Of a stretch of DNA of 49,553 nucleotides, positions 215 through 6,620 are shown in pieces. Every line of letters starts with the position of its first letter. The stretch's first letter is position 1. The translations under genes and the position numbers were made by a program. The DNA is from a bacterium (GTDB lineage: Bacteria > Patescibacteriota > Minisyncoccia > Phycocordibacterales > UBA6899), in assembly GCA_043736515.1 (NCBI GenBank), contig JAYTCK010000045.1:1-49553 (forward strand). Reading direction: 5' to 3'. The notes below the pieces were generated by a model. It was not told where the DNA came from. It did no database searches and worked only from the letters and a program-made list of their open reading frames with translations.

Positions 215-267
215 GTTTAGACTAATAGACCAAAAAGCAGGTTGTGTAATAAGCACAATAAATGTTA

Positions 268-302
268 AAAACAAAAACTCCCACAGGGGGAGTTTTTGTT
301 TT
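268..302 (-). terminator. Intrinsic terminator downstream of the micro-ORF (probably bidirectional)
   Basis: Perfect 15-bp inverted repeat AAAACAAAAACTCCC-acagg-GGGAGTTTTTGTTTT with A/T tails on both sides. Confidence 0.85.
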
Positions 303-317
303 GTGGAAGAAAAGGAT

Positions 318-380
318 TTACGCCTTCTTCTTCTTTGCTGCCTTCTTGGCTACTTTCTTTGCCTTCTTCTTTGCTGCCAT
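318..380 (-). CDS. 20-aa Lys/Ala-rich basic micropeptide MAAKKKAKKVAKKAAKKKKA (histone-H1-tail-like)
   Basis: Hand-translated from ATG (378-380) to TAA (318-320). Codons are almost all AAG/GCA. Flanked by a sigma70-like promoter (495-523) and a strong terminator (268-302). Too short for the supplied ORF track. Confidence 0.7.
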   Translation of the reverse strand: MAAKKKAKKVAKKAAKKKKA

Positions 381-494
381 ATTAGTTGAAGTTAGAGGCT
401 AATAAAGATGATTGCTTCGACCGAGAGCATCATTCAACTGATGCGAGTGTTCTTGATAAAAATTTCATTGCTAGCAACGAACACTCCTATCATC

Positions 495-523
495 ATTATC
501 ACTCGCAACTGTTTTGTACTCAA
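495..523 (-). promoter_or_regulatory. Sigma70-like promoter of the micropeptide transcript
   Basis: TTGAGT (518-523) - 17 nt - GATAAT (495-500) on the minus strand; predicted start near 488, giving a leader of about 108 nt. Confidence 0.55.
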
Positions 524-1724: not shown

Positions 1725-3911
1725 TTAGTTCGATGCTTGGATCTGCCGGATCAGCTGATCTCCCTGTTCCTTCAAGCTGGCATCCAGGCTAATTCCCTTC
1801 TCGACGGCCTCGATAGCTTTCTGCTTTTGTCCAAGCTGTGCGTATCCGCCGGCAAGCGAAAGGTAATCACGTGCTACAGCCTGACCTTGTGCGATCTTTT
1901 CGTTAAGGATTGCAATCAATTTATCAGAATATCCGCCGATGCCGTATGCGTTTATCACGCGGCTATCAAACGCAGCTGATGATGTTCCTACGATAGCATC
2001 CGCTTCATTGGGCTTCTTCTGATAGATCAGCGCGACAGCGTAGGCAATCTTTGCTTCACCATTTTCTGGGACAAGGTCGTAGGCAATTTTTGCCGTTGCT
2101 TCAGCGTCAGCATAACGCTGCATCGCAACATAGGTCATTGAAAGATCCAGATACGTTGATTGGCGCCTAGGTGAAAGCTCGATCGCTTTTTCAAAATGCG
2201 TGAGTGCCTTGTCATACTGACCAAATCGGGCATAAAACATTGCGGCGAACGACTGTGTGCGCAAATTGTCCGGATCATCCTTAAGCGCAAGATCGAATTG
2301 CTCATTCGCGAGATCATAAAATTGCTGTCGGAGGGGTTCGGGTACTCGAGGATCGAGCGTCTGGAATGAGAGCTGAATGATCTGCTCGCGTGCCTCTCCT
2401 GTCCCAAAGCGATCTGGACTGACCACATCAGCGAGAGTAATCTTCTTGCCACCTTTGCCGTCGTCTACAAGTACACCTTCAGGGCGTATGCCATTGATGA
2501 GTGCGATGTTCGCATTGATATTGCGAATATTGATGAAGTAAATCATACCCACAGTAATGGCGACCACGATAGCTCCGACGATAGCAAAGTCCCCGGGCTC
2601 CATTGCATCATCTTTTTTGTGCTTGTGGGTAACAGCCTTCTCTTTCTCGGGGTTGGGCGCCTCAAGTGTGTGGAGGTATGCGAGCGCTCCAAAGAAGAAG
2701 ATGTAGCTGGTCAGGTTGTCGAACACAAAGATATTGTGAATAAAATACCCCGCGAGCATGCCCGTGAGAATACTTCGTTCAACTACCGTAAAATGGTGCT
2801 TACGCGAAAACCATAGATAGTAGATTGCTGCCCCAAATAGTGAGAGGTACGAAAGTATACCGAGCGCGCCTCCCGCAATCATCCAATCGAAGAATACATT
2901 GTGCGAGCGATCAAACCATGGCTCCTGATTATACATTTGCGGATTGTAGTGTTTGGAGAATACATAGAGGAAATTGTCCTGACCCCAACCCAAGACAGGG
3001 CGCTCTTTAAAACCTTCCCATGACATCTTCCAGATCATAAAGCGGGAATTGGTAGTCTTGTCTGCAAGCGAAATACCTGCCATACGAGAAAGTGTCGGAC
3101 TTGATTGAATGAACTCTGATTGTCTAAATGTGATAAACAGCGCAACGAGTGCGACCATTCCCACCAAACCCCCGATGGCGTATTTTTTAAGGGTTTTGTG
3201 TTCCTTATCGAAAAACGCAATAAGGAGGAGCGTGAGTGTCACACCGCCGACAACGGAAAGAATCGTACCGCGAGTACCGGTGTAGTAGAGAATGACGAGG
3301 TTGAGGGCTGCAGCGACAGGATAGAGCCAATGTAGTCCTTTTTGTTTGGAAGAGCGAAAGTAAAGAAAGATCGCAATGAATGCGTGGAAAAACATGTAAA
3401 TCGCAAGGTAGGTTGAATTGCCGAATGTTGCATCAACGCGGCCATGCATTTCGGTTTTCCCCGCAATTTGCGTAAACGCATAAATGACGACAATGAGCGA
3501 AGCCCCGAGTGATGTTCGCCAAAACCAGTTCCATATTTCTTCAGTGAGCAGTACAGAGCCTGCGATGACAAAGTAAAGAAAGAGGTGCACATGGGTGATA
3601 AGCCCTTCCATGCGCTCGTAATTAGACCAAAAACTGCGATATGGGTTCGCACCGAGAAAATCGGCGAGCGCAATGACACAGAGAAATGTGCCAGCTGCAC
3701 CTAAAATCCAAGAAAACTTCGGACGATACGTCGCATCGAGAAACATAAGAAGCACCCATGCGCCGAGCATTATTTCAACCAAAATACGAAAAGTGAAGTT
3801 CTTGCCCGTAATGAAGGGAAAAAACATCGTCTCTGCAACCAAAAGACAAATAAAAGGCGTGGCAAAGAAACACGCAAGTACAGTAAATCGTAGAATATCA
3901 CGTAATAGCAT
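1725..3911 (-). CDS. O-antigen ligase (Wzy_C)-family membrane protein with C-terminal TPRs
   Basis: About 12-13 hydrophobic segments; TGTRG, SRFMIW, RPVLGWG, RSHNVFFD (conserved His) motifs; TPR-like C-terminus (ALTHFEKAIELSP, AIEAVEKGISLD). Start placed at MLLRD (3911) because a TATAGT hexamer lies 7 nt upstream; the ORF track starts at 3947. Confidence 0.85.
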   Translation of the reverse strand: MLLRDILRFTVLACFFATPFICLLVAETMFFPFITGKNFTFRILVEIMLGAWVLLMFLDATYRPKFSWILGAAGTFLCVIALADFLGANPYRSFWSNYERMEGLITHVHLFLYFVIAGSVLLTEEIWNWFWRTSLGASLIVVIYAFTQIAGKTEMHGRVDATFGNSTYLAIYMFFHAFIAIFLYFRSSKQKGLHWLYPVAAALNLVILYYTGTRGTILSVVGGVTLTLLLIAFFDKEHKTLKKYAIGGLVGMVALVALFITFRQSEFIQSSPTLSRMAGISLADKTTNSRFMIWKMSWEGFKERPVLGWGQDNFLYVFSKHYNPQMYNQEPWFDRSHNVFFDWMIAGGALGILSYLSLFGAAIYYLWFSRKHHFTVVERSILTGMLAGYFIHNIFVFDNLTSYIFFFGALAYLHTLEAPNPEKEKAVTHKHKKDDAMEPGDFAIVGAIVVAITVGMIYFINIRNINANIALINGIRPEGVLVDDGKGGKKITLADVVSPDRFGTGEAREQIIQLSFQTLDPRVPEPLRQQFYDLANEQFDLALKDDPDNLRTQSFAAMFYARFGQYDKALTHFEKAIELSPRRQSTYLDLSMTYVAMQRYADAEATAKIAYDLVPENGEAKIAYAVALIYQKKPNEADAIVGTSSAAFDSRVINAYGIGGYSDKLIAILNEKIAQGQAVARDYLSLAGGYAQLGQKQKAIEAVEKGISLDASLKEQGDQLIRQIQASN

Positions 3912-3948
3912 GGGATTTACTATATAGGGTAAATACGATGAGCGCAAA

Positions 3949-4656
3949 TTACATCACTAAGGACGAGTCGAGGCGTTTGTAGCCAGTATTTTGGCTTAGC
4001 TCCTCAAGCGCGTGGGCGCCCATGCCGGCAGTGCGAGCGAAGACGAAGAGCGCTTTGGCGGCAGCGGGTCGCATACCAAATGAAAGCGTGGCAGCAGCAA
4101 ATGCACCGTCTACATTGAGGGGAAGTTTCTTGCCCTTGGACTCATGGAGCGCCGCTTCAATAGCATAGGCTTTCTCAAACGGTGCGAGTGAAACCCCTGA
4201 TGCCTTTGCTTTTGAATAAATGAGCGTGGCGCGGGGATCTTCATCTTTATAGATTCGATGACCGAAGCCGGGGATATTTTTCTTGGCACTCATATATTCC
4301 GCAACTATCTCGCGTGCACCACCTTCTCGGGCGAGCATGTGCGCAGCAGCTTCCCCTGCTCCACCGTGCGCTTCCCCCATGGCGAGCATGCCGGCAGCCA
4401 TCGCAGTGTGAACCGAATTTCCCGAAGCCACACTTATACGCGGCACGTATGCAGAAGGTGTTTCAATGCCATGTTCGGCGGCAGCAACAAGCAGCGTATC
4501 GAGAAGTGCACGCTCGCCAAGAGTGGGCAGCTTTCCGCTGTACAACAAAAAAATAACTTCAGTGAAGGTATGAGTCTTCATCAGCTCTGTCATCTTCACG
4601 CCGTAAATAGTATGTTCCTCCTTTTCAGACTTACTAATCTTTGTTTCAAATTTCAT
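3949..4656 (-). CDS. Citryl-CoA lyase-like protein (citrate synthase fold, short form)
   Basis: 235 aa; motifs AAAEHG, EAHGGAG, IPGFGHRIYKDEDPR (catalytic His), LNVDG (catalytic Asp); N-terminus FETKIS resembles the Ccl/ACL lyase module. Confidence 0.8.
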   Translation of the reverse strand: MKFETKISKSEKEEHTIYGVKMTELMKTHTFTEVIFLLYSGKLPTLGERALLDTLLVAAAEHGIETPSAYVPRISVASGNSVHTAMAAGMLAMGEAHGGAGEAAAHMLAREGGAREIVAEYMSAKKNIPGFGHRIYKDEDPRATLIYSKAKASGVSLAPFEKAYAIEAALHESKGKKLPLNVDGAFAAATLSFGMRPAAAKALFVFARTAGMGAHALEELSQNTGYKRLDSSLVM

Positions 4657-4662
4657 AGATGT

Positions 4663-5565
4663 CTACTTACCTGCTAATTTTTTGAGTATATCAACAATGT
4701 CTTCCGGAGTCTGTGCAATGTGTGCACCTGCAGCTTTCAGTGCTGCGATCTTAGTGGACGCCTTACCTTTATCGCCCTCGATGATCGCCCCTGCGTGTCC
4801 GAGTGCCGTCCCCCACGGTAATGACTCCGCAAAGATTCCCGCGATGAGCGCGATAACCGGTTTTGTGATTTCTTTCGCAATAATCGCACTGGCGAGCGTG
4901 TCTTCATATGTCCCTCCCACTTCTCCAAACACGACAATTGCTTTTGTTTCAGGATCTTTTTCAAATAGCAGGGCAATATCGCGAAAGTCGCTTCCAATAA
5001 GCGGGTCCCCTCCGGTACCGATTATGGTGCTTTGTCCGATACCATTTTCCGTGAGCATCCGCGAGATCTCCGCTGTCATCCCCCCGCTCTTTGAGATCAC
5101 CCCAACTGATCCTTTCAAAAAAATCTTATCTGCAAGGCCCGATGAACCAATGCTTCCAATCTTGGAGTTCCCTGGCGAGAGTATCCCCACAGATGACGGC
5201 CCCACAATACGTACGCCGTTGTTTCGAGCGAGTGCAATCAGTCGTGCGACATGCAGTATGGGAACTCGTTCACTCAAAATGTTGATCAGGGGAATATTCG
5301 CCGCAATAGATTCTTCTCCCGCGGCACCAACAAATTTTCCTGGCACGGCGATGAGGGCAGTATTAATCTCAGGAAATTTTTTGACCGCCTCGGCGACCGT
5401 GTTGAAGATGGGAACTCCTTCCGGTGTCACTTCACCTCCCTTTCCTGGAGTAACACCGGCCTCCACCTTGGTTCCGTACGCAAGCATTTCACGAGCAGCA
5501 CGCGAGCCTTCTTTGCCGGTGATGCCCTGTACGACCACCCTGGTATTTTTATTAACGAGAATCAT
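4663..5565 (-). CDS. Citryl-CoA synthetase/ATP-citrate lyase alpha-like subunit (SucD fold, CoA-binding)
   Basis: VVVQGITGKEG, GVTPGKGG, IVGPSSVG, SKSGGM (ACL-type; SucD usually SRSGTL), GTGGD, GEVGG and phospho-His motif GHAGA. Confidence 0.85.
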   Translation of the reverse strand: MILVNKNTRVVVQGITGKEGSRAAREMLAYGTKVEAGVTPGKGGEVTPEGVPIFNTVAEAVKKFPEINTALIAVPGKFVGAAGEESIAANIPLINILSERVPILHVARLIALARNNGVRIVGPSSVGILSPGNSKIGSIGSSGLADKIFLKGSVGVISKSGGMTAEISRMLTENGIGQSTIIGTGGDPLIGSDFRDIALLFEKDPETKAIVVFGEVGGTYEDTLASAIIAKEITKPVIALIAGIFAESLPWGTALGHAGAIIEGDKGKASTKIAALKAAGAHIAQTPEDIVDILKKLAGK

Positions 5566-6620
5566 ATTTGCTCTTTCATAAGTTTCATTAAGCGTACCGC
5601 TGATTCTGCCATAGAAATTTCTGATCCGAACACATGCATGTTATATCCTTCGTTCGCGACAACTTCCATAAGCATTGCTCTCGCCTCTTCTTGTCTCGGG
5701 CCATCACGACGAATCACGATGGGGTAGGTGGGCTTTGGGGTGACCTTGCGCAAACCATCCACGAACCCGGACATTGTTTCAAATATATCTGTAAAGTTTG
5801 CCGTGCCACCGACAACCCATACTCCCTTTAAATTTGGCTGTCCGAGCACGCGCATCGTCAGTTCCTCAACGACCTGCCTCTTCGGGTTTCCTGAATACTC
5901 GACATAGTTTGCGGGCTTTCCACCCGAGCGCATGAGAATGTCGATGTTGAGCATTGATGCTCCGCCCCCTGAGGCGATTACGGCAATGTCTCCGCCAAGT
6001 TCGATAAATGGCCGCTCATTTGTTTCTTTGAGTGCATCATCGTAAATCACTTTTGCATCACCCGCAACAACACTGCCGTCGGCAAACACAAAGAGCGGAT
6101 TGATTTCGGCCATCAGTACTCCCTCTTCACAAAAAAGTTTCCAAAGTTTGTTCACGAGTAGAAAAACATCGTCCGTAATGGGTTCACCAAATGCTTGAGT
6201 GAGCGCTGAATGGGAAAGTCCCGCAAGAATATCAATAGGAATAATTTTTGCATTATGGACACCCGTCCCTCCCCGAGCATTGAGTGCAAGCACGGGAGAA
6301 CGATACGACGTAGAGTACGAAAAACTTACGTACATTTCTGTTTCTGGAACAATCACTTCTTCGGCGAGAAGTAGGGCGGGCAAATATCCGTCAATTGGGA
6401 GCGCAAAAAGCTTTTGTTTTACAGCCACGAATTCTTCGGCGCTTTCAACGAGAACAATCCCCCCTTTTGCTTTTCTGTCACTTGCAGGAACTTGCGACTT
6501 AAGCATGAGCGGGAACGAAAGTGCGGTTTTTTGGGTTTCGGGATGAATTAACTCAAACGCGGGTACTGCAATACCGTATTTTTCAAAAAGCGCCTTCCCT
6601 TCATGTTCGCATATCTTCAT
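5562..6620 (-). CDS. Citryl-CoA synthetase/ATP-citrate lyase beta-like subunit (ATP-grasp plus citrate-binding domain)
   Basis: EHEGKALF and RKAKGG, EINPL, DAK; C-terminal GGGASM, NYVEYSGNP, GGTANFTDI and RRDGP match the ACL citrate-binding domain rather than SucC (NGAGLAM, NFLDVGG). Confidence 0.85.
   Translation of the reverse strand: MKICEHEGKALFEKYGIAVPAFELIHPETQKTALSFPLMLKSQVPASDRKAKGGIVLVESAEEFVAVKQKLFALPIDGYLPALLLAEEVIVPETEMYVSFSYSTSYRSPVLALNARGGTGVHNAKIIPIDILAGLSHSALTQAFGEPITDDVFLLVNKLWKLFCEEGVLMAEINPLFVFADGSVVAGDAKVIYDDALKETNERPFIELGGDIAVIASGGGASMLNIDILMRSGGKPANYVEYSGNPKRQVVEELTMRVLGQPNLKGVWVVGGTANFTDIFETMSGFVDGLRKVTPKPTYPIVIRRDGPRQEEARAMLMEVVANEGYNMHVFGSEISMAESAVRLMKLMKEQI

Follow-up and report, generated by a model that had tools for sequence, protein, structure and literature searches.

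A conserved transcription unit downstream of murB very probably encodes a free-standing lysine/alanine micropeptide in Parcubacteria

We analyzed a 49.5-kb stretch of DNA from a bacterium of the Patescibacteriota (contig JAYTCK010000045.1; hereafter the window), in which a very short lysine/alanine-rich (K/A) open reading frame (ORF) lies downstream of murB. An initial annotation, made from the letters of the sequence, had proposed that this micro-ORF forms a stand-alone transcription unit with a TTGAGT-17-GATAAT promoter, a structured leader of about 108 nt, and a 15-bp terminator. Each of these elements is present, and the unit lies wholly on the minus strand. murB (1632-607) is followed by a DnaA-box-like sequence, GTTATCCACA (551-542), that contains a perfect DnaA-box consensus 9-mer, TTATCCACA (550-542), 18 nt upstream of the -35 hexamer TTGAGT (523-518). 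The -10 hexamer, GATAAT (500-495), follows after 17 nt, and a predicted leader of ~108 nt (488-381) runs from A488, a start inferred from the position of the -10 hexamer, to the ATG at 380. The micro-ORF (380-318, with its TAA stop) encodes the 20-aa peptide MAAKKKAKKVAKKAAKKKKA, which has the composition originally stated: 11 Lys, 7 Ala, one Val, one Met, and no acidic residues, giving a net charge of about +11 and a combined Lys and Ala content of 90%. The 3′ untranslated region (UTR) contains a conserved pyrimidine box, CCUUUUCUUCC (315-305), and the unit ends in an intrinsic terminator whose 15-nt arms (302-288 and 282-268) are 100% complementary, with a 5-nt loop and a T run behind them. 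Judging from the sequence and a comparison with three relative loci (L004-L006, from a set of retrieved relatives labeled L001-L043), the next gene on the same strand has an apparent start near position 35 and leaves the window.

The whole unit occurs well beyond this contig, in 23 distinct versions from metagenomes and metagenome-assembled genomes of Parcubacteria, including Candidatus Lloydbacteria; the carriers are a clade of ultra-small bacteria from groundwater. The initial annotation had suggested searching downstream of murB in genomes of the Candidate Phyla Radiation (CPR), and this is where the unit was found: it directly follows murB in all retrieved relatives whose MurB is 99, 81, 75, 70, 59, 58, 57, 55, or 51% identical to that of the window (the best named relatives being Parcubacteria, Paceibacterota, and Candidatus Lloydbacteria), and no unit follows murB in one locus with a 50% identical MurB (L002). 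A metagenome scan with a pattern made of three leader blocks only returned 19 loci. One of these, L015, was a GC-rich chance match of the DNA pattern and was discarded; the 18 true loci all carry the promoter, the K/A ORF, and the terminator, none of which the pattern required. The units of L041 and L043 were obtained independently of the leader pattern, and the box ahead of the promoter was no selection criterion in either the scan or the MurB look-ups. murB precedes the unit wherever upstream sequence is available. The genes downstream vary (secA, a secreted protein, others) and begin 140-480 nt away; secA is next in L010, L014, L016, L022, L026, L029, L041, and L043, and is not the next gene in the window, L004-L007, or L031. 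A covariance model built on the leaders (R1) finds exactly one copy per locus and, in the 49.5-kb window, no second convincing match, the remaining hit being weak, overlapping, and on the opposite strand (19.7 bits, E 0.12). Recurrence of the whole unit in 23 distinct sequences from other samples confirms, at the level of sequence comparison, that the observation is not a chance one, and backs the proposal of a stand-alone transcription unit.

To describe the promoter we used an alignment of 21 distinct upstream sequences and read L041 and L043 directly. The -35 hexamer is conserved as TTGAGT, TTGAAC, TTGAAT, or TTGAGC and the -10 hexamer as nATAAT, with a 17-nt spacer that is free in sequence; conserved hexamers around a free spacer are the signature of a working promoter. 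Conservation starts abruptly at GTTATCCACA, and the sequence just upstream of this box is not conserved. Thus, the boundaries first assigned to the unit enclosed the right elements, but the conserved unit reaches further upstream, to 550-551. TTATCCACA stands at a fixed distance in 22 of the 23 units, and the Lloydbacteria unit (L043) has TTATCCCCA, with one mismatch. By its sequence (TTATNCACA) the site qualifies as a DnaA box, and the window contains two exact copies of TTATCCACA, one of them at 550-542. The economical reading is that the box would be a single operator for DnaA or for another factor of that specificity. A replication origin was considered and rejected, as the box stands alone, neither the window nor L041 contains a cluster of such boxes, and an AT-rich region for unwinding is not conserved: the upstream AT-rich tract is missing in L016, L017, L024, and L026.

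The leader is clearly under strong selection, to judge from its nucleotides: leader and 3′ UTR are more conserved than neighboring protein-coding DNA, and the leader exceeds murB at the DNA level. Its long invariant blocks are AGGAGTGTT, CACTC, and GGTCGAA. An invariant A488 lies 7 nt after the -10 hexamer, so the RNA probably begins AGGAGUGUUC. All three stems proposed initially exist, but the second and third cannot form together because they share the bases ATGC (AUGC in the RNA). Helix P1 (8 bp; GAGTGTTC/GAACACTC, in RNA GAGUGUUC/GAACACUC; 486-479 with 452-445) closes the extreme 5′ end and encloses an insert that varies (18-38 nt) and in some members folds into small hairpins. Across the family, 97.8% of P1 cells are paired; the only changes in its 7-bp core are two A-to-G substitutions that give U.G wobbles, in L041 and L043, and there is no compensatory double change. 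Helix P2 (GCAUCA/UGAUGC; 444-439 with 432-427) is found in most units and is absent from L007, L010, L018, L019, and L043; 75% of its cells are paired, there is no covariation, and nothing supports it beyond complementarity. Hairpin P3 (ATGATGCT.../...AGCAATCAT, in RNA AUGAUGCU.. with ..AGCAaUCAU; 433-423 with 418-408, one bulge) has a counterpart at its position in 22 of the 23 units, with 87% of cells paired in a common register. Its loop and closing 3′ arm, nGGUCGAAGC, are conserved, and its outer part is lineage-specific yet complementary: UUUUAUGC/GCAUAAAA in L010, UUGAUG/CAUCAA in L018, and a rebuilt stem in L043.

Taken together, P1 and P3 are 91.5% paired, compared with 30-49% for slid controls. 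The helices are almost invariant, with one cell changed on both sides, and because they barely vary there is no convincing covariation. The leader alone does not fold significantly better than shuffled sequences (z = -1.35; 22/200 shuffles fold as well). The transcript as a whole folds better than its shuffles (z = -3.8), an effect owed mostly to the terminator. The description of the leader as structured thus holds by conservation, not by folding energy. A candidate fourth helix, in which conserved GGUCGAAG would pair with CUUC before the ATG and mask initiation, was rejected, since it averaged -5.7 kcal/mol compared with -5.9 kcal/mol for shuffles. Rfam at gathering thresholds gave zero matches in the window, Rfam at E <= 10 gave only sub-threshold matches driven by the terminator, and a tRNA/tmRNA search found none. 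The leader may exert control, as suggested earlier; it is strongly conserved, but has no covariation and no match to a known regulatory RNA. We infer that the leader may act as a 5′ stabilizer and as the binding site of a regulator, possibly the peptide itself.

At the other end of the transcript, the CCUUUUCUUCC box is complementary to the final Lys codons (GAAGAAGAAGG), so that the stop codon lies in the loop of a predicted hairpin, and YCUUUCUUCC-ACAAAA is conserved in the units where it is readable. A terminator is present in every unit that reaches that far. It consists of an A-tract, a G+C-rich core of ~4-6 bp, and a U-tract within a symmetric stem of 15 bp. Its core changes on both sides by lineage (CUCCC/GGGAG, CCCGC/GCGGG, UCCAC/GUGGA, UUCCUGC/GCAGGAA), and this is the one place in the unit where compensatory change is plain.

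Several features of the micro-ORF indicate that it is in all likelihood translated. Homologous ORFs are complete in 21 distinct units (two more are truncated by contig ends) and fall into ten length classes: 13, 14, 15, 20, 22, 24, 25, 37, 42, and 43 aa. Examples are MAKKKKAAKKKKA, MAAKKKAAKKVAKKATKKVAKKKKA, and MATKKKAAKKVVKKAAPKKKVAKKAVKKAAPKKKAAAKKKKA. In all complete units except L031, a conserved ATG is in frame with a conserved GCR-TAA at the end of the purine tract, so that the ORF, its start, and its stop, whose loss in relatives would have spoken against a gene, are retained. The spacer from the stop to CACAAA in the 3′ UTR varies by 1-3 nt and so is not tied to multiples of three. 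An examination of synonymous changes, also suggested initially, is informative within the 20-aa group, where four of the five variable sites are synonymous third positions; outside it, comparing codons of same-length ORFs is uninformative, as K and A positions shift internally. Over 16 distinct ORFs, Ala uses GCA, GCG, GCC, and GCT and Val uses all four GTN codons, and the counts of T at codon positions 1, 2, and 3 are 1, 25, and 19 among 350 codons; these sequences are related, and counts across units are not independent. The other two frames contain stops in 7/16 and 3/16 ORFs. Lys codons are AAG rather than AAA by 184:15 (92% AAG). In the window's 44 long ORFs, AAG makes up 34% of Lys codons, with 71% in the highest single gene, and AAA-AAA is preferred for Lys-Lys. 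Ribosomes and polymerases slip on A-runs, which near-exclusive AAG avoids, and the bias thus fits selection for faithful poly-Lys synthesis.

The region before the ATG also looks suited to initiation. The stretch at 405-381, which contains a conserved AGCCnCUAACUUC motif, is G-poor and predicted to be open: the last 25 nt before the ATG have a G fraction of 4.4%, compared with 20% in the rest of the leader, and a mean predicted unpaired probability of 0.58 compared with 0.40. No Shine-Dalgarno (SD) sequence was found before the ATG of the micro-ORF. This is normal here, since SD motifs are depleted upstream of the window's 44 genes (GGAG, 2 found and 6.9 expected; GGAG/GAGG overall, 2-3 and 6-7). 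TATA-like words are enriched 4-6-fold within 40 nt of the starts of the 44 long ORFs. An epsilon-like translation enhancer, UAACUU, the motif of phage T7 gene 10, is a possible lead: TAAC occurs 8 times upstream of the 44 genes compared with 3.2 expected, but TAACTT occurs 0 times. The genome as sampled suggests mostly SD-less initiation on leaderless or short-leader mRNAs, and in such a genome the 108-nt leader of the micro-ORF would be exceptional. We conclude that the stand-alone unit is very probably a real micropeptide gene.

What the peptide might do is suggested by how it varies. All 21 complete family peptides are built of K, A, V, P, T, and S plus the initial M; their charge, composition, and ends (MA... 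and ...KKKA) are conserved, and their length and order are not. This pattern favors a polycation that binds nucleic acids without sequence specificity, and the mode of evolution is, by analogy, that of disordered polycationic tails, unlike that of small ribosomal proteins. Five family peptides gave no matches in Pfam. In NCBIfam the best match was NF038053, for the 43-aa relative only (E = 8.8, 6.5 bits compared with a cut-off of 80). Among the PDB chains listed at E <= 10 there was no ribosomal chain; the listed matches were N-terminal tails of eukaryotic histone H3 and one Cse4/CENP-A chain (best E 0.53), and these are a compositional effect. Our leading explanation, held with middling confidence, is that the unit is a monocistronic, unannotated gene for a Lys/Ala polycation resembling a histone H1 tail, located after murB in a Parcubacteria (Paceibacteria) clade. 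In the mechanism we propose, a sigma-70-type promoter flanked by a DnaA-box-like operator would drive transcription of a short mRNA that should be stabilized by stem-loop P1 at its 5′ terminus and by the strong terminator at its other end. Translation would begin without an SD sequence in the G-poor open stretch, and near-exclusive AAG for Lys would avoid slippery A-runs. The product, from its composition, would be an abundant, sequence-unspecific polycation on nucleic acids, a free-standing counterpart of the C-terminal tail of histone H1 or HU, and would neutralize the charge of the nucleoid or RNA and compact it. Control is likely to be exerted at the conserved P3 hairpin and at the box that precedes the promoter.

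The initial annotation had further predicted that such a gene would fall below gene-caller thresholds, and comparison supports this: callers miss the locus or choose wrong frames. There is no public call in the NCBI Lloydbacteria contig (L043), and elsewhere the calls are wrong or doubtful. A 35-aa antisense ORF was called in two loci (L007:5293-5400 and L008:5227-5334), the micro-ORF was given a 57-aa in-frame N-terminal extension in a third (L042:4224-4397), and out-of-frame ORFs of 85 and 90 aa were called in two more (L004:3604-3861 and L041:4227-4499). In L006 a 105-aa call lies over the micro-ORF position. A full-text literature search found no description of the micropeptide gene or of the leader RNA. 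K/A-rich, histone-like polycations are already known as a kind; what is new here is the conserved leader RNA, absent from Rfam, together with the unusual promoter architecture.

A second set of stand-alone micro-ORFs was found when we searched proteins with the 42-aa family member. This search retrieved only short ORFs of another lineage, at E >= 0.01; the query did not retrieve its own family, which means that these peptides are missing from the protein collection. The second set (L032:3001-3093, L035:1667-1762, and L037:790-885; also P0124, P0128, and P0129) encodes K/A/V/P peptides of 30-37 aa (e.g., MATAKKAAPKKKVAKKAVKKAAPKKKVAKKK) in an unrelated lineage, one related match being named Endomicrobia. 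These ORFs have a TTGACG-17-TAAAAT promoter and a clear Shine-Dalgarno sequence, AAAGGAGG, use mixed AAA and AAG codons, and are without the leader and box of Parcubacteria; their neighbors are an SPOR/NlpC_P60 protein and an ABC ATPase. Their existence means that stand-alone polycationic micro-ORFs may be a wider, unstudied class.

Some features around the unit in the window were also recorded. Right after the murB stop is an A+T-only inverted repeat (561-618; 29-nt arms, 90% complementary, no loop), which may be a murB terminator or a mere low-complexity spacer; relatives are A/T-rich at this position, and the details are not conserved. Upstream of murB, on the same strand, is a gene for a 740-aa membrane protein (1725-3947) that combines an O-antigen ligase-like Wzy_C domain with TPR repeats at its C terminus. 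The order Wzy_C/TPR gene, murB, micropeptide holds in most loci with upstream DNA, and L043 interposes a DUF5671 gene and a small ORF. Beyond it, three adjacent minus-strand genes (3949-6620) encode ATP-grasp_2 plus Citrate_bind, CoA_binding plus Ligase_CoA, and the C-terminal part of citrate synthase. They are conserved in L001, L003, L007, and L008, and their domains seem to be the make-up of a split ATP-citrate lyase or of a citryl-CoA synthetase plus lyase, which would be unusual for Parcubacteria. Between the terminator and the next gene, the spacer at 100-240 is wholly unlike that of L004-L006, which have a GGGGATGTAC...GTACACCCCC hairpin. A hairpin in the window's spacer, GCATCATTCTGATGATGC (165-182), is 83% identical to the leader hairpin P2 (427-444), a likeness that may be due to chance or be the remnant of a partial duplication.

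A number of points weigh against a polycation gene as we have described it. The whole case is comparative, and the function is drawn from composition, the peptide having no homologs among DNA-binding families. Nor does a simple stability role explain why the leader's nucleotides are so highly conserved. The repeat tract is T-free and cannot hold stops, and, being made of AAG and GCA units, it can gain 3n indels by repeat slippage with no coding constraint; the AAG bias itself could come from a constraint at the RNA level, such as pairing with the CCUUUUCUUCC box. In L031 (region 5600-5800, with the unit at 5798-5920, on the minus strand of that locus) the stop is changed from TAA to ATA (GCGATAATTCC instead of GCGTAAATTCC), and the ORF, now 57 aa long, continues across the terminator. 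Its sister sequences, L018 and L021, keep the normal stop; the change in L031 reflects either an error of sequencing or assembly or natural read-through variation. Several of these points would be expected if the (AAG)n tract and leader acted as a non-coding RNA, e.g., as a sponge for a pyrimidine-rich RNA or for a protein, with the ORF incidental: leader and 3′ UTR would then be more conserved than adjoining coding DNA, as they are, and AAG would be complementary to the conserved CUUUCUUCC box, as it is. We consider such an RNA improbable. It does not account for the in-frame ATG and TAA, the degenerate third positions of GCN and GTN codons, the avoidance of T at codon position 1, the stops in the other frames, or the G-poor, open initiation region, and in a separate lineage similar K/A/V/P ORFs stand behind clear SD sequences. 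The opposite strand offers another reading, in which a hydrophobic Phe/Ala/Leu-rich peptide (262-402, plus strand) would be a type I toxin and the K/A strand its antisense RNA. The antisense calls in L007 and L008 and a weak, sub-threshold match to the antitoxin RNA ohsC (32.9 bits compared with a cut-off of 50) point that way, but the ohsC alignment covers only the terminator hairpin, no plus-strand promoter was found, the start codon is not conserved (it is ATG, GTG, or TTG, or is missing, and it frequently falls within the terminator), and L018, L021, and L031 have interruptions in the Phe-rich frame. A toxin gene here is barely credible.

As the main rival to a nucleic-acid polycation, the peptide could be a tiny protein, specific to this lineage, that belongs to the ribosome or is bound to it, like bTHX, bS22, or eL41, with the leader as an rRNA-mimicking autoregulatory site. 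Such a protein would be tiny and very basic, as this peptide is, and several small ribosomal protein genes are lone genes with a good promoter and terminator; the invariant leader blocks suggest a specific binding partner, and CPR ribosomes lack some universal proteins. The initial annotation had offered ribosome binding alongside nucleoid condensation, and the comparison weakens that option: peptides of 13-43 aa stand behind almost identical leaders in different lineages, whereas ribosomal pockets usually fix length and sequence, and no solved ribosomal chain is similar, only H3 tails at E > 0.5. The composition is also K/A- rather than R/K-rich, and the gene is not part of a ribosomal protein operon. 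Overall, we judge ribosome association unlikely, and rank the RNA-only, exported-peptide, regulatory, and antisense-toxin readings below it. A released or surface-acting, poly-lysine-like peptide aimed at the host or neighbors of an epibiotic cell is doubtful enough that we give it little weight. CPR bacteria have a host-attached way of life, membranes and cell walls are targets of polycationic peptides, and the neighbors are envelope-related (murB, the Wzy_C/TPR protein, secA or a large secreted protein); on the other side, the peptide has no signal peptide and no hydrophobic or amphipathic face, there is no adjacent exporter, maturation, or immunity gene, and the synteny is with housekeeping genes. 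Still less probable is a regulatory upstream ORF whose translation would respond to lysyl-tRNA or to the state of secretion and thereby regulate the following gene, in the way of SecM or attenuators. Although secA follows in the eight loci named above, the next gene is 140-480 nt off and is something else in the window and other loci, and a strong terminator intervenes for which we found no segment able to pair with the 5′ arm as an antiterminator. The weak, sub-threshold Rfam Phe_leader matches align to the terminator alone (23 bits compared with a cut-off of 55); the ORF itself lacks an arrest motif, and its length is unconstrained.

Returning to the polycation, a bolder version of this explanation is possible but speculative. 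The peptide could be the smallest known nucleoid- or RNA-associated "protein" in Parcubacteria, a polyamine substitute or minimal histone tail tied to DnaA and, via the leader hairpin, to its own level, and it could belong with L032-L038 to a widespread class. CPR bacteria, or Patescibacteria, have minimal genomes with few recognized nucleoid proteins, and most of them have not been cultured. That every annotation pipeline misses or mis-calls a gene that is conserved, and is probably expressed at a high level, leaves a concrete gap in CPR parts lists, and low-complexity micro-ORFs of this sort need comparative, not composition-based, detection. Should the peptide prove to be a free polycation, it would reveal to what extent a factor that compacts DNA or RNA can be pared down, and would be a simple, synthesizable reagent for testing this. 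The conserved arrangement of a DnaA box with a promoter would also open gene regulation in these organisms to experiment, for which there are few other starting points.

Parts of this unit resemble known systems. DnaA-regulated promoters include those of dnaA and nrdAB in E. coli and sda in B. subtilis. As in these, a perfect TTATCCACA closely precedes the -35 hexamer here, at a constant distance in 22/23 units; unlike in these, the box is single and a candidate by its sequence only. No small polycationic peptide is known to belong to any DnaA regulon. The 5′-terminal stem-loop of the E. coli ompA leader and the STAB-SD of Bacillus cryIIIA stabilize mRNAs, and the micropeptide transcript likewise has a helix at its predicted very 5′ end and, as in STAB-SD, an SD-like AGGAG at that end, distant from the start codon. 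However, its 5′ end is predicted only, and the leader is far more conserved than a generic stabilizer needs. Leader-peptide attenuators such as Phe_leader share with the unit a short ORF rich in one amino acid and an intrinsic terminator close behind, but the unit has no alternative antiterminator pairing and no lysine-related gene downstream. The micropeptide matches bTHX, bS22, and eL41 in size range, high positive charge, and proneness to being missed by gene callers. These proteins are Arg/Lys-rich and fixed in length and sequence within a lineage, whereas the micropeptide varies threefold in length. The closest likeness by composition is to the H1-type K/A proteins, namely chlamydial Hc1/Hc2, Pseudomonas AlgP, the Burkholderiales H1-like NF038053, and the C-terminal tails of mycobacterial and streptomycete HU. 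With these the micropeptide shares its K/A(/V/P) make-up, AAPKKK- and AKKA-type repeats, and lack of acidic residues, a composition from which electrostatic, sequence-unspecific binding to nucleic acids would be expected. But H1-type proteins are ~100-200+ aa long, or are tails on a folded protein, whereas the micropeptide is a free-standing chain of 13-43 aa with no folded domain, encoded by a gene with its own conserved leader and a box upstream of its promoter.

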